Assembly: GCA_002746795.1 (NCBI GenBank)
Contig: PDQY01000100.1
Span: 29-64,028, forward strand
Reading direction: 5' to 3'
Source: Chloroflexota bacterium
Lineage (GTDB): Bacteria > Chloroflexota > Anaerolineae > Promineifilales > Promineifilaceae
DNA length: 64,000 nucleotides
The notes beneath the pieces are model-generated. The model did no database searches and was not told the DNA's origin. It worked only from the letters and a program-made list of their open reading frames with translations. The translations under genes were made by a program, and so were the position numbers. The first letter of the stretch is position 1. Every line of letters starts with the position of its first letter. This document shows, one piece after another, positions 1 to 64,000 of the stretch.

Positions 1-582
1 TTTGGCCTGGGTGGGCCAGGAAGCAGGATGGGCAAGTTTGTAGTGAGGACCGGCATCTTCTAAAATTTTCTCAATCCTGGCCACATCGGCTTCGGCTAAT
101 TGAGCATAGGTTTGGAAGCCGCCCGCCTTGAGCAATTCATCAATTTTAGGGCCAATACCTTCAATCTTTTTGAAATCGTCTGGCACCACCGGCACGGGTT
201 CAGGTTCTTCGGCAACCGGTGCTTCAACAACAGGTTCAGGTTCAGATGCTTCTTCTACAGCTTCAACAACGGCCGTTTCCGTTACAACAGGTTCTGCCGC
301 CACCACTTCCTCAGCCAACAAGGCAGAGCGAGTGGCTAAAGCATCTTCTTCTGCCTCAGCATATGCCACCGTCTCCTCTTCAGAAACAGCGGGGCCAGAA
401 ACTTGCCTGCTATCCTCTTCTTTCACTTCATCTAAATCTTCGTCACTAACGCCAAACCACCAACTGAAAAAGATGATAATGAAAAGAACAGCAATGATCA
501 AAAAGATGATAAGTAAGATGGGATCGACTGCTATGTCAGACTGTAAAGCGATAGAAAGCGAAATTGAATGTGCGGTCACCAT
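1..582 (-). CDS. membrane-anchored helix-hairpin-helix (DUF4332-like) protein; C-terminus runs off the window
   Basis: My own minus-strand translation; the ORF track omits it because it is open at the window edge. ATG at 582, with GGAGG at 586-590. Sequence: MVTAHSISLSIALQSDIAVD, then a TM helix PILLIIFLIIAVLFIIIFFSWWF, an acidic E/V/A linker, then DDFKKIEGIGPKIDELLKAGGFQTYAQLAEAD. The listed + ORF 128..625 is its low-complexity antisense shadow. Confidence 0.55.
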   Translation of the reverse strand, partial: MVTAHSISLSIALQSDIAVDPILLIIFLIIAVLFIIIFFSWWFGVSDEDLDEVKEEDSRQVSGPAVSEEETVAYAEAEEDALATRSALLAEEVVAAEPVVTETAVVEAVEEASEPEPVVEAPVAEEPEPVPVVPDDFKKIEGIGPKIDELLKAGGFQTYAQLAEADVARIEKILEDAGPHYKLAHPASWPTQAK

Positions 583-606
583 AAGCCTCCTGCAACAAAT
601 ATGTTT

Positions 607-672
607 CGTAAGGAACAGAAATTAAATAATACGACAAAGTCATTTCCTTACCGTTCCTTGAAACTGACAATG
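607..672 (-). repeat. structured intergenic repeat (SIR), A-type arm, inverted orientation
   Basis: The reverse complement reads CATTGTCAGTTTCAAGGAACGGTAAGGAAATGACTTTGTCGTATTATTTAATTTCTGTTCCTTACG. This aligns with the copies at 7446, 36433, 37614 and 61410. Confidence 0.7.
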
Positions 673-901
673 AACTTCCGTATTTTAGGGCATCGTTAAG
701 CCTAAGCGTATCAAATCATACCATTGACCAGAGAAAATTTCATCCTGAATTTGGGCAAGGGATTCGCCAGCCGGCAAGCACCAAGCATTCCATATTTTAG
801 TCTGACGAGACAGCAGCAGGGGCACTTTGGGCAAATCCACCAAAAAGAAGCATTAAGATTAAGGCCAGCAACCCTCGCTTCAGCCAATTTGTGTGGCGTT
901 T

Positions 902-1942
902 TTAGGTGGCGACAGCCTGGTAGGTGAAAGGTTCCAGATAAGCGTCAAAACCATCTTCCACCCCTTTGACAATCACGCTAATGGCATCGTGGGAGTGCAA
1001 GGACTCTTTATGCGAAGCAAACACGCGAAAATCATGGATGCGTTCGTCATTGTCCAACCCTTCATAGAGTAAACGCACCGCGTCCTCCACAAATTTCAAG
1101 TTAGCCGCATTAAGTTCGGCAAACGCTTGCTCATCTTCCCGTTTGACAATGACCTGGGTCTCCGTTTGCAAAGTTTCCCGGGCGATGTCGATCACATCTT
1201 CAATGCGCAGATCGCCATCATGCTCTATAGAGATTTTGGCGACGGAACGCTGGCTATGGGGCACAGCTGCCACACCACGCTTCAAGTTGGCATGGATGCT
1301 TAACTCATAGCTGCATGGGCAAGCAGAAGAGTACACAAAATCCAGATGCAAAAATTGACGCACGCCTTTTTCTGGGGTCACCACCGTTTCTAACACCACC
1401 GGATAATATTGGTAACCGGACAATCCGCTGCGCAAACTATTTTGTTTGAGGGGATAATCAAAAGCAATGGCAATACGCGCCGAGGAACTTTCCAAGTTTT
1501 CCAAATAACTATGGACGATATTCTGCAAGGTCACTGGATTGAGTTCGCTTTCGTCATATTCGTAGAATGTGCGCATGATACGGCTCATGTTGATGCCTTT
1601 CCTGTGAGCATCAAGGGAAACTGTGCCTGTTACTGAACAATGAACCGACAATAAATCTCCAGCGCGAGTGACGATTTTCATCGGAATTTTGAAATTGTGA
1701 ATGCCCACATGCTGAATGGCAATGTTAGCCCCACGGTTGTCAGCTGTGTTCTGCATATCGGGTAATGATGCTTTGTACGTAGGCGTGACCACAAATTCCC
1801 CATCGTAACGTTGTTGTAGATCGGTAACAAGGCGTGTTCCGGCAATTTTATCTGATTCTGTTGCGGTCACAGCGTGATCGGCATTGGTATCACGGCCGTT
1901 TCCGTTGACGGCTGAAGCAACCCCATTTATTAGCCTGTGCAT
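902..1942 (-). CDS. folE2: GTP cyclohydrolase IB (FolE2/MptA family)
   Basis: 346 aa with family-typical segments HSQRSVAKISIEH, VKREDEQAFAE and SLHSHDAISV. Confidence 0.8.
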   Translation of the reverse strand: MHRLINGVASAVNGNGRDTNADHAVTATESDKIAGTRLVTDLQQRYDGEFVVTPTYKASLPDMQNTADNRGANIAIQHVGIHNFKIPMKIVTRAGDLLSVHCSVTGTVSLDAHRKGINMSRIMRTFYEYDESELNPVTLQNIVHSYLENLESSSARIAIAFDYPLKQNSLRSGLSGYQYYPVVLETVVTPEKGVRQFLHLDFVYSSACPCSYELSIHANLKRGVAAVPHSQRSVAKISIEHDGDLRIEDVIDIARETLQTETQVIVKREDEQAFAELNAANLKFVEDAVRLLYEGLDNDERIHDFRVFASHKESLHSHDAISVIVKGVEDGFDAYLEPFTYQAVAT

Positions 1943-1992
1943 AATTTGTCTCCTATTGTTTGTGCTTTACATGCAGCTTTCACCTCTTTTCC

Positions 1993-2046: not shown

Positions 2047-2121
2047 AAAAGCACAATTCACATTTATTCCAATTATTTAGCTACCTGTTCCTTCACAACC
2101 TATTTTGGAGCAAAACATGAA

Positions 2122-3090
2122 TCATTTCCAATGTCGGCTTTGCCACCAAAATGCCGGTAACATCTTCAATTTATCCCACTTGGACACAAAAGCACGATAA
2201 TGAAACACATCATAATCATTCGCTTCAATACGCTTCAAAATACCACGATACAAACCAGCGGCAGCAGCAATGGCAAAACGGCCGTCTTTGTGCAGCATCT
2301 TAATACCTGGCCACGCCTCTTCATACAGTTGACGGGTGCGGTCAATTTGGAAACGCATAAATTCACGCCACTTCTCCGTGACCACCCCGGCCGCAATATC
2401 AGCTTCGGTGAGGCCAAAGGTGGCTAACTCTTCTTTGGGCAAATAGAGGCGACCACGCCGCCAATCCTCGCCGACATCCCGCAAGATATTGGTCATTTGC
2501 AAAGCTAAACCCAGTTTAACAGCATAGGAAATCGCTTTAGGAGCCGAGAAACCGATGATGTGCATACTCATCAACCCCACGGTCGAGGCCACACCATAGC
2601 TGTAAGTGGCCAACTCGGCAAAGGTTTCGTAACGGTTCTGGTACAAATCACGAGAAACCCCGCCTATCAGTTGTTCTGCATAACGAACTGGAATCCGGTA
2701 CCGCTGTCGGGTGTCAGCCCAAGCCAGAGCAACCCATTCTTGCTGCGGGGGATTATCTGAGAAAGCATGCCGGTGCCACTGAAGCAGGTTTTGCTGCACA
2801 TTCCCCTCAGGATTGTCAACAATATCATCCGTAATACGACAAAAAGCATACAAAGCTCTAACTGCCTGCCGTTTCTCTTCTGGCAGTAAACGTGACGCCA
2901 TATAAAAGGAAAGGCTGTGTTCAGCAGTGATGTCTTTGCACAAGGCATAAGCTTTTTGTAACAGATGATCTTCGGCGATAGGTTGGATAGCAACGGCCGT
3001 TTCCATATGCCAGGCATCTCCAGCCAACGATAACAACTGATTCTCCCAAGTTCGTGTTTGTGCCACTATAACTATCTCTCCTCGCACCAT
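2122..3090 (-). CDS. crtB: phytoene synthase
   Basis: Squalene/phytoene synthase motifs [13 protein letters not shown] and [18 protein letters not shown]. Divergent from crtI. Confidence 0.85.
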
Positions 3091-3295: not shown

Positions 3296-4822
3296 ATGTC
3301 CCAAAAAATCATCGTCATCGGCAGTGGGTTTGGCGGCTTGGGTGCCGCTGCTCGTTTAGCCGCTCACGGTTACAACGTTGAAATCTTTGAAAAACGAGAC
3401 AAACTCGGTGGTCGTGCCTACGTCTACGAAATAGACGGCTTTAAGTTCGACGGCGGGCCAACGGTAGTCACCGCCCCATTCATGTTCGATGACATCTTTG
3501 AACAAGCTGGCCGCAAACGGGAAGATTACATCGAGTTTGTACAACTTGACCCATTTTACCGCATCTTCAACCATGAAGGTCGTCATTTTGACTACAATGA
3601 TAATCCTGATTTCATCAAGAGCGAAATCGAAAAGTGGAACCCAGCAGATAAAGCGGGTTACGACAGGTTTATGTCAACCACACAAGCGATCTTTGAAAAA
3701 GGATTCATCGAACTGGCCGACAAGCCTTTTTTAAGCATTAAAGATATGCTCAAAGTGGCACCCGACTTGATCAAGTTACAATCCTACAAATCAGTTTACA
3801 AATACGCTTCGCAATTCATTGAGAATGATTTTCTGCGTCAAGTCTTCTCATTTCATCCCTTACTCATTGGTGGCAACCCCTTTGATTCATCATCGATTTA
3901 CGCCATGATCCATTACCTGGAGCGAGAGTGGGGCATTCATTTTGCGATGGGAGGCACAGGCACCATTGTCGATGGGCTGGCCAAACTCATTACAGAACTG
4001 GGCGGCACATTCCACTTGAATGCAGAAGTTGAAGAGATACTGGTAAACGGCCGTTCTGCCACCGGTATTCGTCTCGCTGATGGCACCATTCATCGAGCCG
4101 ATCACATCATCTCCAACGCCGACATCGCCTGGACCTACCTCAACATGATCCCGTCCAAAGCTCGCAGCCTGCGCAACTCAGACACCCGCTACAAGAAACT
4201 GACCAAATACTCCATGTCCTCCTTCGTCATCTACTTTGGCACAAAAAAACGGTACCTCGACTCCGAACTGATGCAGCACAACATCATCCTCGGCCCCCGC
4301 TACAAAGGTTTGCTCACAGACATCTTCAACAAGAAAATTTTAGCCAACGATTTCTCACTCTATCTCCACATGCCCACCATCACCGACCCCTCCCTGGCGC
4401 CCGAAGGACATGAAACATTCTACGCCCTCTCCCCAGTGCCCCACCTGGGAGCCGACATCGACTGGACAAAAGCCGCCAAACCCTACCGGGATGCCATCAT
4501 GCAATTCCTGGAAGACAACTACCTGCCCGACCTGCAAGCCAATATCGTGGTAGAACACACCATCGACCCGCTCCACTTCCAAAACGACCTAAACAGCCAC
4601 CTGGGTGCCGGTTTCTCCATCCAGCCAGTGCTAACCCAATCAGCCTGGTTCCGCCCCCATAACCGTTCAGAAGATTTTGACAACCTCTATTTTGTGGGTG
4701 CTGGCACCCACCCTGGCGCCGGCTTACCTGGCGTCCTCTCTTCCTCAAAAATTGCTGAAGAGCTCATCATCAACACCAAGCCGCTGCCCGTTCCCAACCA
4801 CACAGTAAACAGTGGCCAATGA
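3296..4822 (+). CDS. crtI: phytoene desaturase (CrtI family)
   Basis: N-terminal FAD fold [18 protein letters not shown] and C-terminal [15 protein letters not shown]. 508 aa. Confidence 0.85.
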
Positions 4823-6312: not shown

Positions 6313-7436
6313 GCCATTTTGAACGCTGGCAGAAGACGTTTATGTTATCGCTTTTGGCACCAGCGCTAGGTTTCTATGCAGAGCGCAGGTACCAATCATT
6401 GCCACCGCTGTCACCGGCAAACGGAATGAGGCTTCACCGGGATGTCTCAGGCGATAAACCATTACCATCGCTTTCGATTATCGTTCCTGCCCGGAATGAA
6501 GCGGCCAACTTGCAATATTTACTGCCTTCACTACAGGCAGTGGCGTATGCCGGGCCGATTGAGGTGATTGTGGTGGATGATAATTCTGAGGATGAAACGG
6601 CCGTTATCGCGCAAGCATATCGCACCAAAGTCATTCGTCTCACAGAATTGCCTCCTGGGTGGGTGGGCAAGCCCCATGCCATGTATCACGGGGCAGCCGC
6701 CGCCAAGGGGGAGTGGCTCCTCTTCACAGATGCAGACACCATTCACGCTCCATCCGGTCCAGAAGAAGCGGTGCGCTATGCAATCAAACACAATCTTGAC
6801 GGTTTAAGTTTATTCCTGGAGCAGGAGTGCCACAGCATGGGAGACCGGTTGGCATTGATGGCAGCTTTTGCCGGGCTGTTCACCGCCTGGCCGCGAGATT
6901 CCGCTTATCTCAACGGCCAATATCTGCTCATCCGGCGGGATGTATACGAGGAAAGTGGTGGCATAACGACCGTTCGCCATGAAACATTAGAAGACCTCGC
7001 CCTGGGAAAGCACCTGAGAAAATCCGGCTACAACGTGCCCATGATGCGCGGCGAGAACGCCGCCAAAGTGCGCATGTACCACAACAATCAGGAAATGTGG
7101 CACGGCATGAACCGGCTTGGTTCCCAATCATTGCGCTTCTCTGGTCTGCGTTCACTCATCACCATCTTTTTTATCACCATTGCCATGAATCCGTTGTTAG
7201 TGCTTTTTGCCGTCATGTCTGGCAAGGTTCGCCGCCGCTGGCTGCCTCTCACCTGGGGTGCTGTCTTCATCGGCTTTTTGCCCTGGGCTAAACGGTACGG
7301 TTCCCTCGCTTATGCCGCCTTGTCTCCCATCGGAGCCCTCATCGTACAAATCGCTAGTTTCTGGGGAATTATCCGCCACGTATTCAAAAAAGGTATCCAC
7401 TGGAAAGGCAGAATCGTTCAACAAAACGATGTCTGA
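6309..7436 (+). CDS. family 2 glycosyltransferase with C-terminal membrane domain (CruC-like carotenoid glycosyltransferase candidate)
   Basis: IIVPARNEAANL, VVDDNSEDET and FTDADT motifs. The C-terminal third is hydrophobic. Translationally coupled to the P450. Confidence 0.7.
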   Translation: MSHFERWQKTFMLSLLAPALGFYAERRYQSLPPLSPANGMRLHRDVSGDKPLPSLSIIVPARNEAANLQYLLPSLQAVAYAGPIEVIVVDDNSEDETAVIAQAYRTKVIRLTELPPGWVGKPHAMYHGAAAAKGEWLLFTDADTIHAPSGPEEAVRYAIKHNLDGLSLFLEQECHSMGDRLALMAAFAGLFTAWPRDSAYLNGQYLLIRRDVYEESGGITTVRHETLEDLALGKHLRKSGYNVPMMRGENAAKVRMYHNNQEMWHGMNRLGSQSLRFSGLRSLITIFFITIAMNPLLVLFAVMSGKVRRRWLPLTWGAVFIGFLPWAKRYGSLAYAALSPIGALIVQIASFWGIIRHVFKKGIHWKGRIVQQNDV

Positions 7437-7571: not shown

Positions 7572-7573
7572 AT

Positions 7574-8410
7574 TTGGATCTTCTTATGACTTACTTTGGT
7601 TTTCTCGCAAGCTTTGTTGGTACGCCCATTATCATTTTGTTGATTTTAGCGTGGCAAGATAAAAAACGGGGCATCGGGTTCCCCAAGCGTTTCAATTCTT
7701 ATTCACCCTGGCTCGTGCTGCTGCTCCACATCGCCATCGCCGTGGTTTATACCACGCCATGGGACAATTATTTGGTGGCAACTCGCGTCTGGTGGTATGA
7801 CCCGAGCTTGGTCACAGGCATTGTCATCGGCTGGGTGCCAATTGAAGAGTATACCTTCTTCATCGCCCAAACCATCATGACCGGCCTCTGGCTCCTCTTC
7901 TGGATGCGGCGTACTCGTCCTTCATCCTTCATCCTTCATCCGTCACCATTTAAAGAAAGCTCGCGCTTGCGCTTGATAGTAACGGGGATAACGGCCGTTT
8001 TCTGGGCAATGATGGTGGGCATTCTTATCTTGGGCTGGCAACCAGGTACATATCTGGCTTTAGAGCTATCCTGGGCACTCATTCCCATCATGATCCAGCT
8101 CGCCTTTGGCTGCGACATTTTATGGCATTATCGTCGGTTAGTGCTGTTGGGAATCATCCCCCCCACCCTGTACCTTTCCTTTGCCGATGTCCTGGCCATC
8201 AACTCCGGTACCTGGACCATTGATCCAGCCCAGTCCCTCAACATCTTCATCGGCAGCCTGCCAGTCGAAGAACTCATCTTCTTCTTGCTGACCAACACCT
8301 TACTCATGTTTGGTATGACGCTCGCTCTAGCGGCCGAAAGCCAACCGCGCCTCCAGCATTTCAAAGCCATGATCACCGGTAAATCTGATCCACAAAGAGC
8401 AGTTGACTGA
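7574..8410 (+). CDS. lycopene cyclase, fused CrtYc/CrtYd type
   Basis: Two polytopic halves, each with the PxEE motif (PIEEYTFF and PVEELIFF), plus WDNYLVATRVWWY. The track start is TTG 7574; ATG 7586 is an alternative start. Confidence 0.7.
   Translation: MDLLMTYFGFLASFVGTPIIILLILAWQDKKRGIGFPKRFNSYSPWLVLLLHIAIAVVYTTPWDNYLVATRVWWYDPSLVTGIVIGWVPIEEYTFFIAQTIMTGLWLLFWMRRTRPSSFILHPSPFKESSRLRLIVTGITAVFWAMMVGILILGWQPGTYLALELSWALIPIMIQLAFGCDILWHYRRLVLLGIIPPTLYLSFADVLAINSGTWTIDPAQSLNIFIGSLPVEELIFFLLTNTLLMFGMTLALAAESQPRLQHFKAMITGKSDPQRAVD
7921..7941 (+). repeat. in-frame tandem heptanucleotide repeat (TTCATCC)x3 inside the cyclase gene
   Basis: 21 nt encoding SSFILHP in the linker between the two cyclase halves. 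Confidence 0.75.
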
Positions 8411-11969: not shown

Positions 11970-13019
11970 TTATCTGGCTCGTTTCAAGATAGCCCGGAGC
12001 GTATCAAGGTATTGCTGTATTTCTGTGTCGCCTATCCAATAATGGGTGACAGCTCGAAACGCTTTGCCACCTAAATCACCAGCCCAAATATTGGCTTCTT
12101 GCCGCATGGCAGCACCAATTTCGGCTGCATTTATTTCAATATTTTCTGCTAAACTGAAAAATACGAGGTTTGTTTTTACGTTTTGCGGCTCGATCACCAC
12201 TCCTGGAATTTCTGCCAGGCCTTGCGCCAACGTTTGCGCATGTTGGTGATCCTCATGCAGCCGCTCTACCATGTCTGTTAGCGCAATCAGGCCAGCAGCG
12301 GCCAGGATGCCCGCCTGGCGCATGCCGCCCCCTACCAATTTTCGATTGCGGCGTGCCTTTTTGATAAATTCGGTGGAGCCACACAAAAGGGAGCCTACTG
12401 GCGCACACAAACCTTTGCTCAAACAAATGGAGACGGAGTCTACATGTTTGGTGATCTCGCGTGCATCGATGTTTTGAGCAACGGCCGCATTGAACAGCCG
12501 TGCCCCGTCCATATGCAGAGCCAGGCCATGCTTGTCGGCGATGGCTCTCATATCGGCGAAGTAGGCGGGAGGCAGGGGATACCCATGCTTGCTGCCATAG
12601 CTGTTTTCAACTAACAAAAGGGTGGTATGGGGAGAGTGAAAATCGTCTGGGGAAACGGCCGTTTCCACCACCGCTGAATCCATTCGGCCGTACTCGTCTG
12701 TGGGCAATACCGTAGGCACAATGCCACCCAGCACCGCCATGCCCCCAGCTTCATAACAATAGGTATGGGCGTCATGGCCCACAATGGCAGCATCACCCCG
12801 AGTGGCATGGCTGAGAATGCCAAGCAAATTCCCCATGGTGCCGCTGGCTGCAAAGAGCGCCGCTTCCATCCCTGTTTTCTCAGCCGCCAGCGCTTCCAGC
12901 TCGTTTACGGTGGGGTCTTCGCCATAAACATCATCGCCCACGACAGCACGGGCCATCGCCTCCCGCATTTCCGGGGTAGGCCAAGATACGGTGTCGGACC
13001 GGAAATCGATTCTATCCAT
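11970..13019 (-). CDS. ltaE: low-specificity L-threonine aldolase
   Basis: N-terminus DFRSDTVSWPTPEMREAMARAVVGDDVYGEDPTVNELE is typical of the beta-eliminating lyase / threonine aldolase family. Confidence 0.8.
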   Translation of the reverse strand: MDRIDFRSDTVSWPTPEMREAMARAVVGDDVYGEDPTVNELEALAAEKTGMEAALFAASGTMGNLLGILSHATRGDAAIVGHDAHTYCYEAGGMAVLGGIVPTVLPTDEYGRMDSAVVETAVSPDDFHSPHTTLLLVENSYGSKHGYPLPPAYFADMRAIADKHGLALHMDGARLFNAAVAQNIDAREITKHVDSVSICLSKGLCAPVGSLLCGSTEFIKKARRNRKLVGGGMRQAGILAAAGLIALTDMVERLHEDHQHAQTLAQGLAEIPGVVIEPQNVKTNLVFFSLAENIEINAAEIGAAMRQEANIWAGDLGGKAFRAVTHYWIGDTEIQQYLDTLRAILKRAR

Positions 13020-17569: not shown

Positions 17570-17924
17570 GCAAGGCTGTGGGTTTCAGTGAACAGTGGAC
17601 AGTGAACAATAAACTGATTACCCAAAACCACAGGGCAATCAGGACAAGTTTATGCGTGTATATCGTTGGGTTATTCTGACAATTCTGGCTGGTTTGACGG
17701 CTCTTTTGTTGGGAACGGCCGTTTCTCTCTCACACGTCAGGGCAGAAGTGGGTCACAATGAAATTAGGGACAGGTGAACCACCACATCCGACGATATAGA
17801 TGTCACCCTGTCAATTGACCGCAACCCAAGCCTTTGTCCACGATGAGGTTGCATGGACAACGGACTGAGCCATCCAACCTGCAGGGTTCCTGGCCTGCTC
17901 CCCTTCACGTGATTCAATACACTT

Positions 17925-52431: not shown

Positions 52432-52809
52432 TCAAGTGCGCGTAATAGCTGCTGGGTGGAATCCTAAAATGTCGGCCATGCCGCTGTTGGCAGCTTCTAA
52501 GGCGGACTGCACACTGGATAAACGGCCGTTTATCACCAATGTCCCGCTAAACCTATCCAGGAACCCAATTTCTACATCGGCTGCTTTTAGAGCCAGGTCG
52601 CCAGCGATAATTGCGCTTTCACCGGGGGTAATGGTCATGATGCCAATCGCCTCTGCGTCACCCAATCCTATTCGTTGACATAACGGCTTGTCCGGGTTGG
52701 CGATGATGTGAGCAATGGTAACCTGCCGACCAGGGACGTATTCTTGAATGATGCGGGAAGACGCATGATCCAACTCTTGGTTGTGATGCGCTGCATACGG
52801 ATCCGTCAT
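52432..52809 (-). CDS. pduU: circularly permuted BMC shell protein PduU/EutS
   Basis: Start moved to ATG 52809. RIIQEYVPGRQVTIAHIIANP...EIGFLDRFSGTLVINGRLSSV matches Salmonella PduU ([20 protein letters not shown]...EIGFLDRFTG). Confidence 0.85.
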   Translation of the reverse strand: MTDPYAAHHNQELDHASSRIIQEYVPGRQVTIAHIIANPDKPLCQRIGLGDAEAIGIMTITPGESAIIAGDLALKAADVEIGFLDRFSGTLVINGRLSSVQSALEAANSGMADILGFHPAAITRT

Positions 52810-54713: not shown

Positions 54714-55907
54714 ATGATTTTAACGATTAACTGCGGCAGCTCAACATTAAAATATCAGCTTTTTTCAACGGATGTCGATCAGGTATTGGCAACGGGGATT
54801 GTGGCTCGGATTGGAGAGGATGGGTCTTATTTTAAGCAGGACGCAAACGGCCGTTCTCATCACGAACTCCATGTTATCAACAGCCACCACGAGGCCTTTA
54901 ATGCTTGCATCAACAGCTTACTACACCCAGAATATGGTGCCATTCAGTCAATTGACGAAATCAAAGCGGTGGGACACCGCGCCGTTCATGGGGCGGATTT
55001 GTTTATCGAATCAACGTTGATTGATGATGATGTCATTGCCAAGATGGAAGAATGTATCCCCCTGGCACCACTGCATAATCCACCCAATTTAATCGGTATC
55101 AAGGAGGCGCAAAGTTTGCTGCCCAATGTGCCGCACGTGGCGGTGTTTGACACGGCCTTTAACCAAACGTTGGCACCCAGAGCGTATATTTACTCGCTGC
55201 CTTATGCTTTGTATGAAAATCATAAAATTCGCAAATATGGCTTTCATGGCACATCGGTACGCTATGTTAGTAGACGAGCTGCGGCGGTATGGAAACGGCC
55301 GTTATCAACGCTAAAGATGGTTGTTTTTCACCTGGGCAACGGCGTCACCATGACGGCCGTTTCCGGAGGGAAAGCAGTGGATACCAGCATTGGGTTTGCC
55401 ACCTTCTCAGGCGTGATGATGGGCACTCGTTCCGGGGACATCGACCCAGGCTTAATATTCCACATGTACCGTGAAATGGACATGTCGATGGCAGAAATTG
55501 AGCAAATGGTCTACAAGGAAAGTGGGTTTCTGGGCATTTCTGGCGTGAGCAACGACGTGCGCGTCGTTGAGCAAGAAGCAGCCAAGGGCAACGAACGTTG
55601 TCAACTGGCGCTCGAGAAATTCGCGTTTATGGCCAAGAAGTATTGCGGTTCCTTTGCGGCAGCGATGGGAGGCCTGGATGCGCTTGTTTTCACGGCTGGT
55701 ATCGGTGAAAACAGCCCCACTATACGCCAAATGATCTGTGATGATTTGCAGTTCCTGGGCGTTGAGGTGGACGCAGAACTGAACGCAAAAGCAATTGGGG
55801 GCAAGGCTGAAATGGAGATTGGTTGTGGGCAAACGGCCGTTCTCGTCATCCCGACCAATGAAGAGAAAATGATCGCTCTCGATACGAAAGAGATAGCAAA
55901 AATATAG
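54714..55907 (+). CDS. ackA: acetate/propionate kinase
   Basis: ILTINCGSSTLKYQLF N-terminus and FHGTSVRYV. 397 aa. Functional equivalent of PduW. Confidence 0.85.
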   Translation: MILTINCGSSTLKYQLFSTDVDQVLATGIVARIGEDGSYFKQDANGRSHHELHVINSHHEAFNACINSLLHPEYGAIQSIDEIKAVGHRAVHGADLFIESTLIDDDVIAKMEECIPLAPLHNPPNLIGIKEAQSLLPNVPHVAVFDTAFNQTLAPRAYIYSLPYALYENHKIRKYGFHGTSVRYVSRRAAAVWKRPLSTLKMVVFHLGNGVTMTAVSGGKAVDTSIGFATFSGVMMGTRSGDIDPGLIFHMYREMDMSMAEIEQMVYKESGFLGISGVSNDVRVVEQEAAKGNERCQLALEKFAFMAKKYCGSFAAAMGGLDALVFTAGIGENSPTIRQMICDDLQFLGVEVDAELNAKAIGGKAEMEIGCGQTAVLVIPTNEEKMIALDTKEIAKI

Positions 55908-55929: not shown

Positions 55930-56748
55930 ATGAATCCAGGAATCAACCATATTCTCGAGCAAGCAGCAACCATTTTCAACCACAAACCAGCCGTGGCAAA
56001 CTATACCGGTACGGTACATGTAGGTGTCGATTTAGGAACAGCGTATACCGTGTTAGCAGTGTTGGATGAGGAGAAACGGCCGTTAGCCGGACGCTATCAG
56101 TTTGCCCAAATCGTACGGGATGGTCTCGTTGTCGATTTTATTGGTGCTATTCAACTGCTCAAGCAAATGAAGGCAGAGGTTGAAGCTGAATTGGGATTTC
56201 AACTAGAACATGCCGCCACGACCTACCCCCCCGGCGTGCCCCTGGCTGAAGTAAAAGCAACGCAAAATGTACTCATTGGGGCTGGGCTAGAATGCAGCCA
56301 ATTTGTGGACGAACCAACTGGCGCCAACGCCCTGTTGAACATCGCAGATGGCGCCATCGTAGATATTGGCGGCGGCACAACAGGTATCGCCATCGTCGAA
56401 CAGGGCAAAGTTATCTACACAGCCGACGAAGCCACAGGCGGCACCCATTTCTCACTAGTCGTGGCTGGCGCCATGAATGTGCCCTTCATTGAAGCCGAAA
56501 AAATCAAGAAAGATGCCACCCAGGCGCGTATGGTCTCCTCGCTGGTGCATCCTGTGATGCAAAAAGTGGGCAGTATTGTCGCCCGCCACATCGAAAAATT
56601 TAACGTGGGCACAATTTACCTGGTGGGTGGCACAAGCAGCCTGTTGGGGATTGATGAGGTCATTCACGAGATCACTGGGGTGAAAACAATCACGCCATCC
56701 CATCCTATGTTTGTCACACCGCTTGGCGTAGCCATGGTGGATCGATGA
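55930..56748 (+). CDS. eutJ: EutJ-family actin/Hsp70-fold protein
   Basis: VGVDLGTAYTVLAV and IVDIGGGTTGIAIVEQGKVIYTADEATGGTHF. Confidence 0.8.
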   Translation: MNPGINHILEQAATIFNHKPAVANYTGTVHVGVDLGTAYTVLAVLDEEKRPLAGRYQFAQIVRDGLVVDFIGAIQLLKQMKAEVEAELGFQLEHAATTYPPGVPLAEVKATQNVLIGAGLECSQFVDEPTGANALLNIADGAIVDIGGGTTGIAIVEQGKVIYTADEATGGTHFSLVVAGAMNVPFIEAEKIKKDATQARMVSSLVHPVMQKVGSIVARHIEKFNVGTIYLVGGTSSLLGIDEVIHEITGVKTITPSHPMFVTPLGVAMVDR

Positions 56749-56783: not shown

Positions 56784-58229
56784 ATGGCGGAAAAGTTAAT
56801 CATCATTGGTGGCGTTGCGGCGGGAATGAGTGCCGCCGCGAAGGCACGACGAGTCAATCCCGATTTGGAGATTGTGGTTTATGAGCAGTCGGGCTACATC
56901 AGCTATGGCGCTTGTGGATTCCCCTACTTCATCAAGGGTGATATTCCTGCCGTTGATGATTTGATTTCGCGTACCCCAGCGCAAATGGCAAAACAAGGGA
57001 TTACGGCGTTGGTTCACCATGAAGTGACAGCTATCCATCCTGCCCAGCAAACAGTGCGTGTTTTGAATCACAAGACGGGAGCCGAATTCACAGATCGGTG
57101 GCACAAATTGATTTTGGCAACAGGTGCCAGAGTGACAAAGCCGCCCATTCCCGGGATCCAACTGCCGGGTGTATTTACGCTGCGCACGGTTGAAGATGCT
57201 GTGGCAATACGGAAGTGGCTGGTTGAGGAAAAACCGAAGCAGGGTGTTATTGTCGGCGCGGGTTATATCGGCCTGGAGATGGCGGAAGCGCTGCGTGCCC
57301 ACGGGGTGGATGTCACGATTGTCGATATGGCAGCACAGGTGATGCCAACGCTAGATGCTGACATGGCTGAGTTTGTGCGCGATGAATTAGCAGCAAATGG
57401 TGTGAAGATTTGTTTGCAGCAGCCTGTAAAGTCATTTGTGGGACCGGCGCAAGTAGAAGATGTGGTGCGGCAGGTGACAACCCACGTGCAAAACCATGGC
57501 GACACGCTCAGCAGCCACAAGCTTAACGGCCGTTTTCGCATCCGTGAAGTGGTGACCCCAAACCATGTGTTCCCTGCTGACATCGTGATCTTTGGAGTAG
57601 GCAGCCGACCCAATACAGCCATAGCGGAAGCGGCGGGCATACGCCTCGGTACTACAGGTGCTGTGGCGGTAGATGTGGAACAGCGAACCAGCATACCACA
57701 CATTTGGGCGGCAGGGGCGGTTGCGGAAGTTTTCCATCTGCCATTGCAAACTCACACGTATATCCCGCTGGCGCTAACGGCGAACAAGCAAGGGCGAATT
57801 GCAGGCAACAACGCAGCAGGAGGAGCTGTGGTTCGATTTGGCGGCGTGGTGGGAACGGCCGTTGTCAAAGCCTTCGATCTCACCATTGCCCATGCCGGTC
57901 TCACAGAAAAATATGCAGCGATGCATGGCCTGGAAGCGGAGAGCGTCTTGATCAAAGCTTCATCTCGCGCTCACTACATGCCAGGCAGCGAGCCGATTCA
58001 TGTCAAGCTCGTTTACGAGAAGAACACACAGCGGCTTTTAGGGGCACAGATGATCGGCAAAGATGGCGTGGCAAAACGTATCGATGTCGTTGCGGCGGCT
58101 CTCAAATCGGCCTGGACTGTGCGTGACATCGCCAACCTTGATTTGGCGTATGCGCCGCCGTTTGCCCCCGTCTGGGATCCGCTTCTCGTCGCTGCAAATG
58201 TGGCTTTGCGTCAGGCAAAGTCGCCATGA
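56784..58229 (+). CDS. FAD-dependent pyridine-nucleotide-disulfide oxidoreductase (CoA-disulfide reductase / NADH oxidase family)
   Basis: IIGGVAAGMSAAAKARR, single redox-Cys segment ISYGACGFPYF, second Rossmann fold VIVGAGYIGLEMAE. Confidence 0.75.
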   Translation: MAEKLIIIGGVAAGMSAAAKARRVNPDLEIVVYEQSGYISYGACGFPYFIKGDIPAVDDLISRTPAQMAKQGITALVHHEVTAIHPAQQTVRVLNHKTGAEFTDRWHKLILATGARVTKPPIPGIQLPGVFTLRTVEDAVAIRKWLVEEKPKQGVIVGAGYIGLEMAEALRAHGVDVTIVDMAAQVMPTLDADMAEFVRDELAANGVKICLQQPVKSFVGPAQVEDVVRQVTTHVQNHGDTLSSHKLNGRFRIREVVTPNHVFPADIVIFGVGSRPNTAIAEAAGIRLGTTGAVAVDVEQRTSIPHIWAAGAVAEVFHLPLQTHTYIPLALTANKQGRIAGNNAAGGAVVRFGGVVGTAVVKAFDLTIAHAGLTEKYAAMHGLEAESVLIKASSRAHYMPGSEPIHVKLVYEKNTQRLLGAQMIGKDGVAKRIDVVAAALKSAWTVRDIANLDLAYAPPFAPVWDPLLVAANVALRQAKSP

Positions 58230-58303: not shown

Positions 58304-59737
58304 ATGTTTAACGCATCCTCGAAACCATTTGCCGCGAAAACGCCAGGGACCATTGACCTGGAGATTTCAGACCCTGTCTTGATGCTCAATGAAATTGCCA
58401 AGCGGTATGAAACGACCGAACGGGTCTTGATGGAGTATGTGGACAATGCCTTGGATGACGCTGAGGCTTTGTTTCGTGAAGGCGGACAGGCGTATCCATA
58501 CCCCATTCGCCTTGACATCACCATTGACCGCGCCCGCCGCGCGGTCTCCATCCAAGATAACTGCCGGGGGATGACGCGAAGAACATTGGAGCGCGTGGTG
58601 AGCCATATTGGTGAATCTCAAAAGCGGGGACAAACATGGGTAAACGGCCGTTTCGGTTTTGGTGTTCACGCCTTCAGAGCTGCGGCCACGTCAGTCAGCT
58701 TCCAAACCAGGCACGAACTTAGCTCGCACCACACCTTGACTGTGCCGCGCGACCAGCACCGTGGCATCAAAGAAGCCAAACGAGTTGATGCGCCGTTTCC
58801 CACCGACCGTGGTACCGGCTGCATCGTGACGGTGGCTGGTTTTGCCTCGGATTGGTTTCAGTCAGTAACGGTTGGCTCCATTCGTGCGGAAATTGAGCAT
58901 CATTTTGAGCGGCTCATAGCTCGACCAAACCTACACATCGCCGTCCATGAGCCAAATCAACCATCCCAGGTTTGCATGGCATTTGACTATGCCGCCATCG
59001 ACGGCATTTCTATCCAGCACGTTTTACATGTGAATTATAAAGATGGTGATTTTCCGGTGGTAGTCTATTGCAAAATCGCAGCAGAGCCCCCGGCAAAGCG
59101 TCCGGTTAGCTTTTTTGCTCGGGATCGCCGCATTGGGGATGTAGCGGAAATCAAATCATTCATGCGGAAATCACGGCACAAGACCAGCGTGTGGAGCCAT
59201 CCCAACTTGTTGGGCTATATCGAAGTAGGGAATTTGGTGCAGCCCATCATCAATCGAGATGATTTTGTGCGCAGCCGCAGCCGCACGCTGCTTTATGAGA
59301 CGTTGCTGCCCATTGAGGCGGAAATCAAGAAAAAGCTGCAAGGGGTCAATGAGCAACAGCGCGAGCAAACATTTGGTCAATTTGAAGAAGTGGTGCAGCA
59401 AGCATTAGCTGAAGTGGTGGCCGATTCTAATTTAGATGTAGCGTTTGTCACCGGCGGGGAAGAGAGACGAGTGACAGTGGAAAACGGCCGTTTAGCCATC
59501 AACACCATGCATCCAGATTTTCAAGCCAGATTACGCATCACGCGCCAAGGCAATCCCCGCCCATCTGATCGTTTGTATGCTTACCTGGCCAGTATTTTGT
59601 CGGTGTATGGCATCAGCCAACAAACAGCTCACACCAAGAAGCTAAACCCAGAAACCAAGATTGACCTTCAAATTGAAATGATGTTAGCTTTGGAAATGCA
59701 GCTGCGGCAATTGCAGAAAAAAGCGCAAAGAGGATAG
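58304..59737 (+). CDS. GHKL-superfamily ATPase (Hsp90/MORC-like HATPase_c_3 type), function unknown
   Basis: Bergerat-fold motifs in order: LMEYVDNALDDAE (N box), SIQDNCRGMT (G1) and NGRFGFGVHAF (G2). C-terminal helical region. No obvious partner gene. Confidence 0.6.
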   Translation: MFNASSKPFAAKTPGTIDLEISDPVLMLNEIAKRYETTERVLMEYVDNALDDAEALFREGGQAYPYPIRLDITIDRARRAVSIQDNCRGMTRRTLERVVSHIGESQKRGQTWVNGRFGFGVHAFRAAATSVSFQTRHELSSHHTLTVPRDQHRGIKEAKRVDAPFPTDRGTGCIVTVAGFASDWFQSVTVGSIRAEIEHHFERLIARPNLHIAVHEPNQPSQVCMAFDYAAIDGISIQHVLHVNYKDGDFPVVVYCKIAAEPPAKRPVSFFARDRRIGDVAEIKSFMRKSRHKTSVWSHPNLLGYIEVGNLVQPIINRDDFVRSRSRTLLYETLLPIEAEIKKKLQGVNEQQREQTFGQFEEVVQQALAEVVADSNLDVAFVTGGEERRVTVENGRLAINTMHPDFQARLRITRQGNPRPSDRLYAYLASILSVYGISQQTAHTKKLNPETKIDLQIEMMLALEMQLRQLQKKAQRG

Positions 59738-61580: not shown

Positions 61581-62942
61581 TTAGCCTAGTGGTGTTAAGA
61601 GTTTGTTATCATGGTTTACTGGGGTGGTTTTGTTGATTTGAATGTGGGACAGGTTGATTTGATTGCCCAATGTTTGTGAGATAGCGGATTCTCTCTCTGC
61701 CTCCCCATTGATACTAGACTCTGATTCTGAATCTAAATCAATGTTAAGGCGCAAGCGGGTGCCGAGGTTAGCGAAGCTGGTAACATGACAGCTAAACTGG
61801 CTGCCATATTCACTTTGTAGTCGTTGAAAGACATTATGAATGCCCAAAGATTGACCATCATCCTCAAAATGCCCAGATTCGATGGTTTCAACAACATCTG
61901 GCGGCATACCAACACCATCATCATGAACTTCGAGTGTTAAACGGCCGTTTTCCTGGTAGGCGTTGACGGTAATCGTGACAGGACGCATCAATGGTTCTGC
62001 TCCATGAATAACTGCGTTTTCCACAAGTGGTTGCAAGACCATGCAAGGAATTTCAAAGTGAGCCAGACCAGGCGCTAAATTGATCACCTTGTTCAAGCGA
62101 TCTCCAAATCGAATTTTTTGAATTGTCAGGTATTGATCAATCATCTCAATTTCTTCACCCAGTTCTACAACAGAAGACATATTGCGCAAGCTGTATCGTA
62201 ACAAATCGCTGAGGGTATAGGCAATCTCTTCAGTCCGTGGTGCGCCTTCTTCCAGCGCAGTATATCCAAGCAAAGTCAACGAGTTGAAGAGAAAATGAGG
62301 ATTGATTTGTGCTTTTAAGGCCTTAATTTGGGTTTCTTGCAAAGCAGCTTGCAGGGCAGCGCGTTCCTGGGCTTCTTTTAAGAGTTGTTTTTGAGCCATG
62401 TTGGCGGCGCTATTTTGCATGATGTTATTCGCTGTCAGGGATAACATCTCTACAGCAGACTCAAACCGTTCACGGGAGAGCGGCTCCATCTTGCGTACTT
62501 CTGCTTCAAATGCTTCTGCCGGCAGGCCAAGGGGAAGATTTCGTTCCACAATGTCTTGAATGAACGCTTCTCTTTCATCAGTGGGAATCACTTGCCCACA
62601 CAATATACAGCCCACGTATTCACCATCAATGATGATCGGGGCAGCGGCATCTAATAAGCCACCAGCACATTTGTAAGCGTAGGGCTTTTCAAGTTCATGG
62701 GCAATACGTCCCCCCTCAGCATCACACCGCTGGCAGCGTGCTAATCCAGTTTTAGTGGATCGGATCATATTACACACGGTGCAAAAGTTACTGGCTTCGG
62801 TAATGGTTTTGCCATTGCAATCTACTGTCACGGCAGCCACGCCCATGGCTTCAGCAAAGGAGTCTTGGAGTTGTTGGAGCAATTTGAGGTCGATGAGATC
62901 TGCGATCAGAATATTGGTTTCTTGTTCTTGCGGGTTTTTCAT
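61581..62942 (-). CDS. PocR-domain sensor histidine kinase (YesM/LytS-type His_kinase + HATPase)
   Basis: N-terminal PocR sensory domain LQQLQDSFAEAMGVAAVTVDCNGKTITEASNFCTVC...CQRCD. H-box region QINPHFLFNSL. HATPase ENAVIHG..DDGVGM. Confidence 0.85.
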   Translation of the reverse strand: MKNPQEQETNILIADLIDLKLLQQLQDSFAEAMGVAAVTVDCNGKTITEASNFCTVCNMIRSTKTGLARCQRCDAEGGRIAHELEKPYAYKCAGGLLDAAAPIIIDGEYVGCILCGQVIPTDEREAFIQDIVERNLPLGLPAEAFEAEVRKMEPLSRERFESAVEMLSLTANNIMQNSAANMAQKQLLKEAQERAALQAALQETQIKALKAQINPHFLFNSLTLLGYTALEEGAPRTEEIAYTLSDLLRYSLRNMSSVVELGEEIEMIDQYLTIQKIRFGDRLNKVINLAPGLAHFEIPCMVLQPLVENAVIHGAEPLMRPVTITVNAYQENGRLTLEVHDDGVGMPPDVVETIESGHFEDDGQSLGIHNVFQRLQSEYGSQFSCHVTSFANLGTRLRLNIDLDSESESSINGEAERESAISQTLGNQINLSHIQINKTTPVNHDNKLLTPLG

Positions 62943-63009
62943 GCGAGCCTCTTCCTGAAACGCGTCATCCGCTTAAAGCACATCCTTCCGCGAGGAATAT
63001 CACTTGCTT

Positions 63010-63250
63010 TTCAGAAAGGGGATCTGGCTTAGTCGTAGGCGTACGGGCGCATCCATCAATAAGTGATGGAATTGATAGATGCGCTTCAAGTGACCTTTCC
63101 CCAGGAAAAACGGAGATTCGTTTTTAGACGGTCACTAAGAAACGGCCATTTAGTAAATCGTAATTTACTCGACTTCACAGTTGCGGGACAGCGCCGGTAT
63201 TTTTGCCGCAGAGCAAAGCACCGGACTTCACCCTTTATTACCAATGGCTA
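63010..63250 (-). promoter_or_regulatory. cobalamin-riboswitch-like leader interrupted by a SIR-B repeat
   Basis: The minus strand reads GGTAATAAAGGGTGAAGTCCGGTG..ACCGGCGCTGTCCCGCAACTGTGAAGTCGAG, then about 125 nt, then ACGACTAAGCCAGATCCCCTTTCTG. The 21-nt core 63177-63197 is identical to 34093-34113. Confidence 0.55.
63047..63139 (+). repeat. SIR, B-type, inside the riboswitch-like leader
   Basis: GCGCATCCATCAATAAGTGATGGAATTGATAGATGCGCTTCAAGTGACCTTTCCCCAGGAAAAACGGAGATTCGTTTTTAGACGGTCACTAAG. Confidence 0.8.
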
Positions 63251-63537
63251 ACAAATAATGCCATCAGCGAATGTTCAATTACTTGCCATTATAAATGATC
63301 ATGATTGATTAAGACAATATTATCTTGATATGTTGATATTTGCTGCCTGCCGCCACCGTTCATGCCGCATACAGGCTGAATGGCGGGGATGTGTATCGGG
63401 AACAGGAATTGGCGGTTAAGAAATGAGTAAGAGTTGCCCTACGATAACGGCCGTTCTTTTGGTCATCTGCCCGTTTTAGCTATAATGCCCGACGTAGTTC
63501 GTAACACGGAGAAAACCCTAGACGCCTGGGAGGATAG

Positions 63538-64000
63538 ATGACAGGAAAGAAAAAGATGATGCTATTGATGCTATTCTTGGTGGGAACGGCCGTTGTGCTG
63601 CTCTTGCTGGCCACCCCCATGATGCTCAAAGCAATCCCGCCCCGCTACCTGTCCCGCTTACCCCAGCCCATTCAAGACCTGCGTACCCCCAAACAAGAAG
63701 TCGCCATTCTCCCCACCGTAGCTGTCCCCGCAGACCTGACCATTTTGTTCACGCCCACACCCACGGCCACAAAAATGCTGCCGCCAACCAACACATCGGT
63801 GCCAGCACCCCAAGAATATACGCCTACACCGCCGCCAACCTCCACCTCCATACCACCAACCTTCACCCCTATTCCGCCCAGCGCCACACCGGTGTCTATT
63901 CCCAACCAGGCCAGGCTAGAAGGCATCTCCCACATGTTCCAGGAATGGAACAACTGCGGCCCAGCCACCTTAGCCATGACCCTCACCTATTTTGACATCC
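63538..64000 (+). CDS. C39-like peptidase domain protein (N-terminal part; continues beyond window)
   Basis: My own translation; the track omits it because it is open at the window edge. ATG 63538 follows GGGAGGA. MTGKKKMMLLMLFLVGTAVVLLLLA TM helix, PT-rich linker, then FQEWNNCGPATLAMTLTYF (catalytic Cys box of the peptidase_C39-like family). Confidence 0.6.
   Translation, partial: MTGKKKMMLLMLFLVGTAVVLLLLATPMMLKAIPPRYLSRLPQPIQDLRTPKQEVAILPTVAVPADLTILFTPTPTATKMLPPTNTSVPAPQEYTPTPPPTSTSIPPTFTPIPPSATPVSIPNQARLEGISHMFQEWNNCGPATLAMTLTYFDI

Follow-up and report, generated by a model that had tools for sequence, protein, structure and literature searches.

We analyzed a 64-kb stretch of DNA from a Chloroflexota bacterium (GenBank assembly GCA_002746795.1, contig PDQY01000100.1; the whole stretch is called the window here) in which one 10-base palindrome, AACGGCCGTT, is written many times through genes and spacers. 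This palindrome appears to be the local 10-base form of an 8-base highly iterated palindrome (HIP), ACGGCCGT, that is carried by one Chloroflexota clade together with its tailed phages and prophages. It is very likely that AACGGCCGTT/ACGGCCGT belongs to the HIP class and is kept in place by a force on the DNA, and we put the probability of the full statement, that the element is read by a sequence-specific protein peculiar to the clade, at roughly 0.6. As shown below, the element is neither mobile nor a protein motif, and its sites are held at orthologous places while their flanks and other synonymous sites drift.

The window contains 43 exact copies of AACGGCCGTT, and the next most common 10-base palindrome occurs twice. 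Chance would give 0.04 copies in dinucleotide-preserving shuffles or 0.06 to 0.17 copies under Markov models of orders 0 to 3. The large excess that a preliminary description, made from the letters alone, had claimed thus holds against every one of these nulls. The 43 start positions given in that description were all correct except 61939, which should read 61940, and its ten additional sites with only the 8-base core were all real. Counting these, ACGGCCGT occurs 53 times in the window (828 per Mb), 10 of them without the full 10-mer, and the runner-up among 8-base palindromes occurs six times; the hexamer CGGCCG occurs 72 times. Pooled over 182 kb of DNA from the clade, the 8-mer was counted 190 times against 4.9 expected. 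The scale is similar in the window, its relatives, and phages, at about one site per 1.2 to 1.5 kb.

Several measures place the excess in a short core. In the window, 81% of the 8-mers are extended to AACGGCCGTT, and the counts of 10-, 12-, 14-, and 16-mers agree with maximal-order Markov expectations. The excess therefore sits in the 8- to 10-base core and not in a longer word. When the flanks were symmetrized, we found a weak preference for G-R-A on the 5′ side and T-Y-C on the 3′ side of the 10-mer, with no information beyond 3 bp. The symmetry of the flanks proposed earlier is real in this sense, but it is weak and reaches out to 3 bp only. The perfect 16-mer GGAAACGGCCGTTTCC was confirmed at 12651-12666 as a single copy. 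No motif-bearing 16-mer has more than three copies in the window, so there is no hidden longer repeat. At Hamming distances of 0, 1, and 2 from the 10-mer, we counted 43, 15, and 30 copies compared to 2, 3, and 29 in a codon-shuffle null. This sharp peak of exact copies without a decaying halo is the opposite of what an old mobile element leaves.

Open reading frames (ORFs) were called with a simple greedy procedure that left 90% of the window coding, and gene identities were checked by Pfam. Forty-one of the 43 10-mers lie inside ORFs, on both strands, and two are intergenic (17714 and 63446). Thus 95% of copies are genic. With the 8-mers counted, 32 different ORFs carry a site. The affected genes are unrelated, including those for carotenoid synthesis, an Obg-neighboring NadD, MiaA, Ham1, YceD, the neighborhood of two Ser/Thr kinases, acetyl-CoA synthetase (Acs), the Pdu microcompartment operon, acetate kinase (AckA), and others. 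The genic 10-mers are read in three frames, as T-A-V (29 copies), N-G-R (9 copies), or (K/E)-R-P-L (3 copies). The composition-based peptide expectation for these frames is 8.8:2.8:1.0, each frame being about threefold above its background. Such a pattern is expected of a frame-blind process that acts on DNA within the limits of what the proteins tolerate. Our ORF calls bore out the earlier claim that the motif lies in unrelated coding sequences on both strands, in three frames, and in spacers, and they reproduced all of the peptide contexts quoted for it (VNGRS, VENGRLA, DETAVI, LETAVP, EEKRPLA, and WKRPLS).

The mark on the proteins is large enough that T-A-V is the most common tripeptide of the window (32 versus 8.8 expected), and N-G-R occurs 14 times versus 2.8 expected. 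Of the 32 T-A-V tripeptides, 31 are spelled ACGGCCGTT, one of 64 possible spellings, for which codon usage predicts 2.3%. Shuffling codons within genes left 0.07 genic 10-mers, and a synonymous-only shuffle, with the proteins and the codon pool unchanged, left 1.2, compared to 41 observed. Since the excess survives both codon-aware nulls, the proposal that the motif acts at the DNA level rather than through protein function is upheld. These results also bear on the ordinary causes that could be offered. The T-A-V or N-G-R peptides might be selected in the proteins, the copies might be a dispersed mobile element or what is left of one, or they might be an artifact of sequencing or assembly. Such causes can point to the 29 of 41 genic copies that read T-A-V, to some copies in one relative that lie within a 174-nucleotide (nt) tandem protein repeat, and to three metagenome matches that are tandem repeats. 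They do not accommodate the use of three frames, both strands, and spacers, the single spelling, the excess over the synonymous shuffle, the end of sequence conservation at ±3 bp, or the presence of the same sites in independent NCBI, ENA, JGI, and IMG/VR assemblies. For the window, these five lines rule out a protein motif, a mobile element, and an artifact, and we give an ordinary cause next to no weight.

Confinement to the window or to one protein domain would have spoken against the proposal, but 32 ORFs carry the motif, and it was found at relatives' loci. A 21.7-kb part of the window is 99.5% identical to contig PDTT01000045.1 of GCA_002748985.1. Five related Chloroflexota assemblies (Ardenticatenaceae-like Anaerolineae), read as pieces of about 20 kb, carry ACGGCCGT at 0.85 to 1.65 per kb (loci L082 to L085, L206, and L001). 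Four of these loci are Pdu/AckA regions syntenic with the window: L082 (GCA_050303915.1; AckA identity, 82%; 0.94 ACGGCCGT per kb), L083 (ENA contig, ERZ25039527; 80%; 0.90 per kb), L085 (GCA_020634565.1, “Ardenticatenaceae bacterium”; 75%; 1.42 per kb), and L206 (GCA_014879875.1; 71%; 1.24 per kb). Another chromosomal region of GCA_050303915.1 (L084) has 17 10-mers in 21 kb, which implies that the motif is genome-wide. The more distant L001, from a Chloroflexota metagenome-assembled genome (MAG) whose Acs is 74% identical in amino acids, has 36 8-mers in 21.9 kb versus 0.43 expected. At 14571-15625 of L001, ACGGCCGT recurs at an exact 174-nt period in a tandemly repeated 58-residue protein segment, which slightly inflates the L001 count. 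The motif was absent from the loci of two Anaerolineae relatives that stand farther away, L207 (AckA identity, 66%) and L208 (63%; GCA_020634855.1).

A scan of the genome collection for acetyl-CoA synthetase, which is too conserved to single out relatives, returned 80 loci, of which 78 came from unrelated phyla and served as negative controls; the informative loci were L001 and L005. The 10-mer was found in none of the 79 other Acs loci from many phyla, where the top 8-base palindromes were ordinary GC-rich words. The fraction of half-sites with the A...T extension of the 8-mer is 0.9 for the window and the relatives nearest to it, 0.64 to 0.70 for L085 and L206, and 0.31 for L001, with a range across loci of 0.31 to 0.97. 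The preliminary description had treated the 10-mer as the unit. That is correct for the local form, but the unit shared across the clade is the 8-mer ACGGCCGT, and the 10-mer is a lineage-specific extension of it. L005 (Anaerolineae bacterium SGMAG-70; 21.9 kb) has no excess of ACGGCCGT and instead carries TCGGCCGA, with the same hexamer core and another outer pair, seven times versus 0.16 expected. This form could represent a sister HIP dialect that belongs to a different lineage of Anaerolineae.

We used codon alignments of 15 to 18 orthologous gene pairs to follow individual sites. Against L082 (79% nucleotide identity), 10 of 12 window sites were intact in place, compared to 9 to 13% of background 10-nt windows, and against L083, 11 of 12 were intact. 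Against L085 (74% nucleotide identity), five of eight were intact and the other three kept the 8-mer with an outer base changed, with a background of 5 to 9%. In summary, 63 to 83% of sites are retained in place at 74 to 79% nucleotide identity versus 5 to 13% for background. Even between the Acs genes of the window and the distant L001, one of two sites is still shared, as the 8-mer. Conserved T-A-V tripeptides had identical codons in 19 of 20 cases over five genome pairs, compared to 9.4% for control tripeptides of fourfold-degenerate residues. Up to 90 nt away from conserved sites, in both directions, identity per 10-nt distance bin was 0.71 to 0.78 and scattered around the 0.759 background. 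The flanks diverge as the background does, so the constraint is on the motif itself and not on its neighborhood. The lower local divergence that would be expected if sites aided nearby repair was not found in these same bins.

Lineage-specific sites stand opposite ordinary coding sequence without gaps and with amino acid changes (SAI/TAV, GSQ/NGR, TSI/TAV, and LAI/TAV). These sites were thus made in place by substitution and not by insertion. The comparison of orthologs proposed at the outset therefore turned up gains by both synonymous and nonsynonymous change in addition to conservation in place.

One-off variants of the motif were examined in two pools, 182 kb of chromosomal DNA and 279 kb of viral DNA. 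Among variants at the outer positions, ACGGCCGC and ACGGCCGA were enriched 1.7- to 4.4-fold in both pools and ACGGCCGG was enriched 1.5-fold in the viral pool only; the exception was CCGGCCGT, at 0.3 observed/expected in the chromosomal pool. Variants at the inner six positions (CGGCCG) had observed/expected ratios of 0.2 to 1.1. The constraint was thereby shown to cover all eight duplex positions, with the outermost pair alone somewhat relaxed.

These variants bear on a function-free ratchet of mutation and repair. Here, a sequence-specific repair activity would turn mismatches at near-cognate sites into ACGGCCGT, which would build up and persist as a by-product in whatever DNA is replicated in the cell; examples would be a very-short-patch-type endonuclease with its methyltransferase or Elhai's ratchet through methyl-directed mismatch repair. 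The sharp peak of exact copies with few one-offs, the fixed synonymous sites, the push of proteins toward T-A-V and N-G-R, and resident prophages that carry the motif at host-like density all fit such a ratchet, and a model of this kind has been proposed for HIP1, the cyanobacterial HIP (PMC4390886; PMC5861425). However, one-off precursors of the transition type are not selectively depleted, near-site flanks are not better conserved, and no Vsr or methyltransferase gene was seen in the DNA scanned. In addition, lineage-specific gains differ from their counterparts at 4 to 6 of 10 positions, which is beyond correction of a single mismatch, although divergence is high in these comparisons. We consider a ratchet without function unlikely, if worth keeping in mind.

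The motif is also abundant in phages. A scan of IMG/VR with one motif-bearing 14-mer returned 120 loci, of which 29 had at least five 8-mers, at 0.5 to 3.7 per kb, and 28 of these had at least 0.8 per kb. The larger ORFs of the motif-rich viral loci match families of terminase large subunit, portal, major head/protease, tape-measure, and endolysin proteins. Copies fall within these genes, where the T-A-V frame predominates, as well as in spacers. For the phage terminase of L117, the closest named homologs are in MAGs labeled Anaerolineales, Chloroflexi, and Anaerolineae. Samples seeded with the motif, both viral and metagenomic, are biased upward. Two prophage-like loci, L329 and L330, were reached by homology to this terminase alone, so that they were not selected by the motif. 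L329 has 19 copies in 14.8 kb and L330, in which an integrase is present, has 23 in 21.7 kb, i.e., a host-like 1.1 to 1.3 per kb. We do not claim that phages are denser than hosts, given the density of these two loci and the bias of the seeded samples. Within L330, all 23 copies lie at 4224-21704 with the integrase and the phage structural genes. Positions 1-4223 are motif-free and hold a NACHT/FGE-sulfatase gene and a reverse transcriptase with an Avd-like gene, an arrangement that resembles a diversity-generating retroelement.

A metagenome scan for two 8-mers 10 to 40 bp apart added about 22 dispersed motif-rich contigs of 47 to 67% G+C. Three tandem-repeat false positives (L291, L294, and L319) were excluded from this tally. 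One of them, L291, is a 2.3-kb contig with a 12-bp tandem array, (ACGGCCGTGTAC)n, plus dispersed copies, and has 15 8-mers.

An active type II restriction system would lead to avoidance of its palindrome, and the site is over-represented in host and phage alike. Its abundance in phage structural genes excludes an active restriction target, and any mechanism must accommodate it. One candidate is a Chi-like signal for recombination or nuclease control, read by a machine of the RecBCD/AddAB type, with phages copying the motif to protect their DNA ends. Over-representation in the host and a density at least as high in phages agree with this. Chi sites, however, are asymmetric and co-oriented with replication, a palindrome has no orientation, and the density here is several-fold above that of known Chi sites. 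A Chi-like role is therefore very improbable.

The same phage data weigh on a role in DNA uptake. The DNA uptake sequences (DUS) of Neisseria and the uptake signal sequences (USS) of Pasteurellaceae occur at about 1 per kb, mostly in genes with frame preferences, have clade dialects, and are maintained at the DNA level; they are asymmetric 9- to 12-mers bound by an uptake receptor. By analogy, a machinery for import or exchange could prefer DNA with ACGGCCGT as its own, and biased uptake followed by recombination would act as a molecular drive. The motif has the USS/DUS density of about 1 per kb, is genic with preferred frames, is retained in place, and has lineage dialects. On the other hand, it is a perfect palindrome, where known uptake sequences are asymmetric, and its density in the structural genes of phages, which do not enter by transformation, equals or exceeds that elsewhere, although prophages could acquire it by recombination. 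For HIP1, one preprint reports that natural transformation is enhanced in a way that depends on methylation and homology (10.1101/2024.09.10.611283), and another proposes an uptake-sequence role (10.64898/2026.06.24.733823). The earlier view that an uptake role is less likely seems reasonable, and our estimate for an uptake or “own DNA” sequence is about as low as that for the ratchet.

For the preferred reading, a HIP-class element read by a protein of the clade, a strict, symmetric site of 8 to 10 bp (weakly to 16 bp) with dialects would mark the binding of a homodimeric, sequence-specific protein that the clade encodes. If HIP1 is taken as the analogy, the foremost candidate for this protein would be a cytosine methyltransferase, orphan or not, that reads CGGCCG/ACGGCCGT with GGCC nested inside. 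CGGCCG is the EagI site and GGCC the HaeIII site. That methylation is the recognizing activity is a tentative suggestion based on this analogy, and we hold it with well under even confidence. Gain and retention of sites could come from a repair bias linked to methylation, from selection for an “own DNA” function in repair, recombination, or DNA exchange, or from both. The weak symmetry to 16 bp, a span that fits the footprint of a helix-turn-helix dimer better than that of a type II enzyme, together with dialects that differ between sublineages, would also suit an array of binding sites. There, an abundant homodimeric protein, nucleoid-associated or chromosome-organizing, would bind ACGGCCGT at thousands of places to compact the DNA, segregate it, or regulate genes globally. 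Known systems of that kind use tens to a few hundred sites and not about 1 per kb, spacing here is random, and the high density in phage structural genes would have no obvious explanation. We regard such an array as improbable, less so than a Chi-like signal.

Several results weigh against the reading of the motif as a methylated or otherwise protein-read HIP. When CGGCCG flanks were pooled over the clade, A...T was counted 190 times and each other flank combination at most 20 times, so that no enrichment is seen for CGGCCG in other contexts; this 8-base specificity is more than a plain hexamer methyltransferase of the EagI type could account for by itself. Spacing is Poisson-like, with a coefficient of variation of about 1 in the window and nine other loci. 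The regular spacing or periodicity reported for HIP1 was therefore not seen here, as the placement of sites looks random and gives no hint of selection for even spacing. Among the one-offs of both pools no signature of deamination or very-short-patch repair was seen, with no clear difference between transitions and transversions. Simple motif scans for genes of 5-methylcytosine and N4/N6 methyltransferases and Vsr gave nothing convincing in the motif-bearing DNA, i.e., the window, the relatives' loci, and motif-rich DNA of viruses (279 kb) and metagenomes (112 kb), which are small and nonrandom samples of genomes. The few SPPF/SPPY matches were in ORFs without other signs of a methyltransferase, and no recognizing protein was identified in the DNA read. 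Lastly, selection and biased conversion are not separable in these data.

We found no published description of a ACGGCCGT/CGGCCG element, although a prior mention is possible, as most subscription journals were outside our coverage. The kind of element is already known; what is apparently undescribed is a HIP with a new sequence in a second phylum and with documented carriage by phages. HIP1 has been known for about three decades with its function unsettled, and work on it has stayed within a single phylum and, in essence, a single sequence. The present case, which differs in both and has sharp on/off differences between close relatives as well as dialects, gives a comparative handle for finding genes that track presence and dialect. 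More speculatively, HIPs could be a convergent genome-wide system and not a cyanobacterial peculiarity. This Chloroflexota clade would then have independently evolved its own 8-base palindrome with the same nested 4/6/8-bp architecture. Its phages would copy the host dialect because DNA with the motif is accepted as self by the host's machinery, be it for modification, repair, recombination, or exchange. We lean somewhat against this broader idea. If it is true, comparing the genes of Anaerolineae that have the motif with those of Anaerolineae that lack it, and with those of cyanobacteria, should reveal the shared machinery, and this would bear on the function of HIPs, a question that is 30 years old. 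The motif also measurably reshapes the proteome through T-A-V, and it could serve as a cheap marker to bin uncultured Chloroflexota and to assign phages to them.

The individual sites of the window are given here with the pentapeptide that each encodes, from which the frame (T-A-V, x-G-R, or x-R-P) can be read. The strand given is that of the host ORF, and each site is AACGGCCGTT unless marked as ACGGCCGT only. The first lies at 268..277 (ETAVV) in an unannotated edge ORF (1-582, −). It is followed by 1892..1899 (ACGGCCGT only; GNGRD, x-G-R) in the FolE2 GTP cyclohydrolase gene (902-1942, −), by 2278..2285 (ACGGCCGT only; KDGRF) and 2992..3001 (ETAVA) in that for phytoene/squalene synthase (2122-3090, −), and by 4046..4055 (VNGRS) in that for a CrtI-like oxidase (3296-4822, +). 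A GT2 glycosyltransferase gene (6309-7436, +) has 6596..6605 (ETAVI), and one for a lycopene-cyclase-domain protein (7574-8410, +) has 7990..7999 (ITAVF). The Ser/Thr kinase-FHA gene (8546-11848, −) carries 8739..8746 (ACGGCCGT only; WTAVI) and 9668..9677 (VTAVT). The center of the single 16-mer, 12654..12663 (ETAVS), is in a beta-eliminating lyase gene (11970-13019, −). Next come 13327..13336 (GTAVG) in Ham1 (13135-13737, −), 14079..14088 (ATAVT) in YceD (13849-14403, +), and three sites in the NadD-like gene (15757-16374, +), at 15912..15921 (ITAVS), 16194..16203 (ETAVP), and 16314..16323 (ATAVL). The first intergenic site is 17714..17723.

Farther along, an HhH protein gene (17925-18506, −) has 18006..18015 (LTAVS). 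Two genes for Usp-domain proteins follow: that at 18525-20297 (−) has 18602..18609 (GRRPF) and 18926..18933 (CSRPL), both ACGGCCGT only, and 19467..19476 (ETAVS), and that at 20317-22053 (−) has 21223..21232 (ETAVT) and 21754..21763 (KTAVN). The longest stretch free of 8-mers is 21764-28347 (6.6 kb), which is not significant (P of about 0.15). It holds a hypothetical gene, a two-component pair, and a Ser/Thr kinase-TPR gene, with the one-off AACGGCCGC at 23111 and 27500. MiaA (28314-29234, −) has 28348..28355 (ACGGCCGT only; KTAVI), 28946..28955 (QNGRL), and 29184..29193 (PTAVG). A GT4 glycosyltransferase gene (29605-30918, −) has 30331..30340 (ETAVL), and the CinA-like gene (30954-32108, −) has 31683..31692 (ETAVF) and 31881..31890 (GTAVN). 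The GHMP-kinase-like gene (32945-33928, −) has 33576..33585 (CERPL), 33680..33687 (ACGGCCGT only; SHGRF), and 33893..33902 (KTAVA). In the acetyl-CoA synthetase gene (34258-36231, −), the sites are 35512..35521 (KTAVA) and 35964..35973 (ENGRS), the latter kept as the 8-mer in the L001 ortholog.

Within the microcompartment region, sites were found at 38757..38766 (LTAVN) in the PduS-like gene (38550-39878, −), 40146..40153 (ACGGCCGT only; EYGRA) and 40221..40230 (ETAVE) in the aldehyde dehydrogenase gene (39969-41396, −), 41902..41911 (KTAVS) in the PduO-like gene (41476-42477, −), 44630..44639 (ETAVS) in a bacterial microcompartment (BMC) shell protein gene (44486-44956, −), and 45570..45577 (ACGGCCGT only; QERPC) in a gene like that for a reactivase small subunit (44953-45597, −). 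The diol dehydratase reactivase gene (45600-47444, −) has 46617..46626 (RTAVV; TACGGCCGTT in the L085 ortholog), and a second BMC shell protein gene (52432-52875, −) has 52521..52530 (INGRL). The acetate kinase gene (54714-55907, +) carries 54846..54855 (ANGRS; CACGGCCGTT in the L085 ortholog), 55294..55303 (WKRPL), 55353..55360 (ACGGCCGT only; MTAVS), and 55832..55841 (QTAVL), and the EutJ-like gene (55930-56748, +) carries 56075..56084 (EKRPL). In the Pyr_redox_2 oxidoreductase gene (56784-58229, +), the site at 57525..57534 (LNGRF) is absent in the L082 ortholog (AGTGACCGTT), and that at 57854..57863 (GTAVV) is AACGGCTGTT in the L082 ortholog with the peptide unchanged. The remaining sites are 58643..58652 (VNGRF) and 59483..59492 (ENGRL) in the GHKL ATPase gene (58304-59737, +), 61940..61949 (ENGRL; AACGGCCGTC in the L085 ortholog) in the PocR-His kinase gene (61581-62942, −), the intergenic 63446..63455, and 63585..63594 (GTAVV) in an edge ORF (63538-63999, +).

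Other features of the window were also recorded. A dispersed intergenic repeat of about 95 nt has four copies, at about 610-700 (+), 7445-7535 (−), 37620-37710 (−), and 61415-61505 (−), with the conserved core TAGGAACGGRAAT..ACGACGAAGTCGT..CCTTACCGTTCCTTGAAACTGACGATG...CATCGT. Three hairpins with 21 pairs are predicted for it, with no compensatory changes among the four copies. Rfam gave no match to it, and the relatives' loci that were checked lack its 11-nt core, CCTTACCGTTC. A 53-bp tandem repeat at 54451-54620 (3.2 copies; 87% matches), with short inverted repeats in each unit, sits between a Zn-alcohol dehydrogenase gene (53233-54366) and the acetate kinase gene. A cobalamin riboswitch (34034-34193, −; Rfam RF00174, 49.8 bits) lies upstream of the GHMP-kinase-like gene and adjoins the operon for the B12-dependent diol dehydratase (Pdu) microcompartment at about 38.5 to 52.9 kb. 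Several 6-base palindromes are close to absent relative to maximal-order Markov expectations (in parentheses): TTCGAA, 0 (6.9); TCGCGA, 0 (6.9); GTCGAC, 0 (8.2); CGATCG, 1 (11); CTGCAG, 5 (20.6); and GATATC, 5 (16.3). GGCC, at 239 versus 387 expected, is also below expectation. Both of these shortages may reflect restriction avoidance.

The closest known system is HIP1 (GCGATCGC) of cyanobacteria. Short palindromic sequence, hyper-abundance, dispersal, origin by substitution, retention, sublineage extensions, and central intolerance, features of the HIP class, were all found here. The HIP1-like behavior first suggested for the motif is supported by the nulls, the frames, the retention in orthologs, and the spread across the clade. 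HIP1 occurs at 300 to 2,700 per Mb, has palindromic extensions and a TCGATCGA derivative, does not tolerate central deviations, and co-occurs with CGATCG and GATC methyltransferases (PMC4390886), and its sites are retained by selection (PMC5861425). Both elements are perfect GC-rich palindromes of 8 bp, and the 828 8-mers per Mb counted here are within the HIP1 range. Both occupy genes and spacers without a longer repeat, are retained above background, and do not tolerate central deviations. Each has a 10-base palindromic extension in some lineages, with 88% of copies in one 10-mer in Synechocystis and 81% here, and each is nested at 4, 6, and 8 bp, as GATC/CGATCG/GCGATCGC or GGCC/CGGCCG/ACGGCCGT. 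They differ in sequence and phylum, and with CGATCG found once in the window, this is not HIP1 proper. GATC is missing from the motif here, which excludes a part for an adenine methyltransferase of the Dam type. Cognate methyltransferases are known for HIP1, whereas none was identified in the DNA read here. Phage carriage is documented here and was not found discussed in PMC4390886 or PMC5861425.

Cyanobacteria also have alternate HIPs or derivatives, namely, TCGATCGA, GGCGCC, GCsGC, and rCCGGy (Elhai 2015, PMC4390886). The phenomenon is thus not bound to one sequence, and the change of the outer pair from GCGATCGC to TCGATCGA parallels that between ACGGCCGT and the TCGGCCGA of L005. The described cases are all cyanobacterial, however, and none has a CGGCCG core. 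Methylation-tied repair offers another comparison, as Dcm/Vsr in Escherichia coli can shift word frequencies toward the cognate site. That skew is modest and affects 4- to 5-mers, compared to the 40- to 700-fold excess of 8- to 10-mers here, and no Vsr or Dcm homolog was seen in the DNA scanned. Repetitive extragenic palindromic (REP) sequences, bacterial interspersed mosaic elements (BIMEs), and repeats of the miniature inverted-repeat transposable element (MITE) type are likewise dispersed and palindromic, but they are 20 to 150 bp long, imperfect, and extragenic and spread as units, whereas this motif is an exact 8 to 10 bp, 95% genic, and born by substitution, with conservation that ends 3 bp outside the 10-mer. 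Chi-type signals are asymmetric, and a palindrome cannot carry the orientation that they have. DUS and USS share with the motif the density of about 1 per kb, the mostly genic location, the frame preferences, the dialects, and a force at the DNA level, but they are asymmetric, whereas the motif is a perfect palindrome and is abundant in phage genomes.

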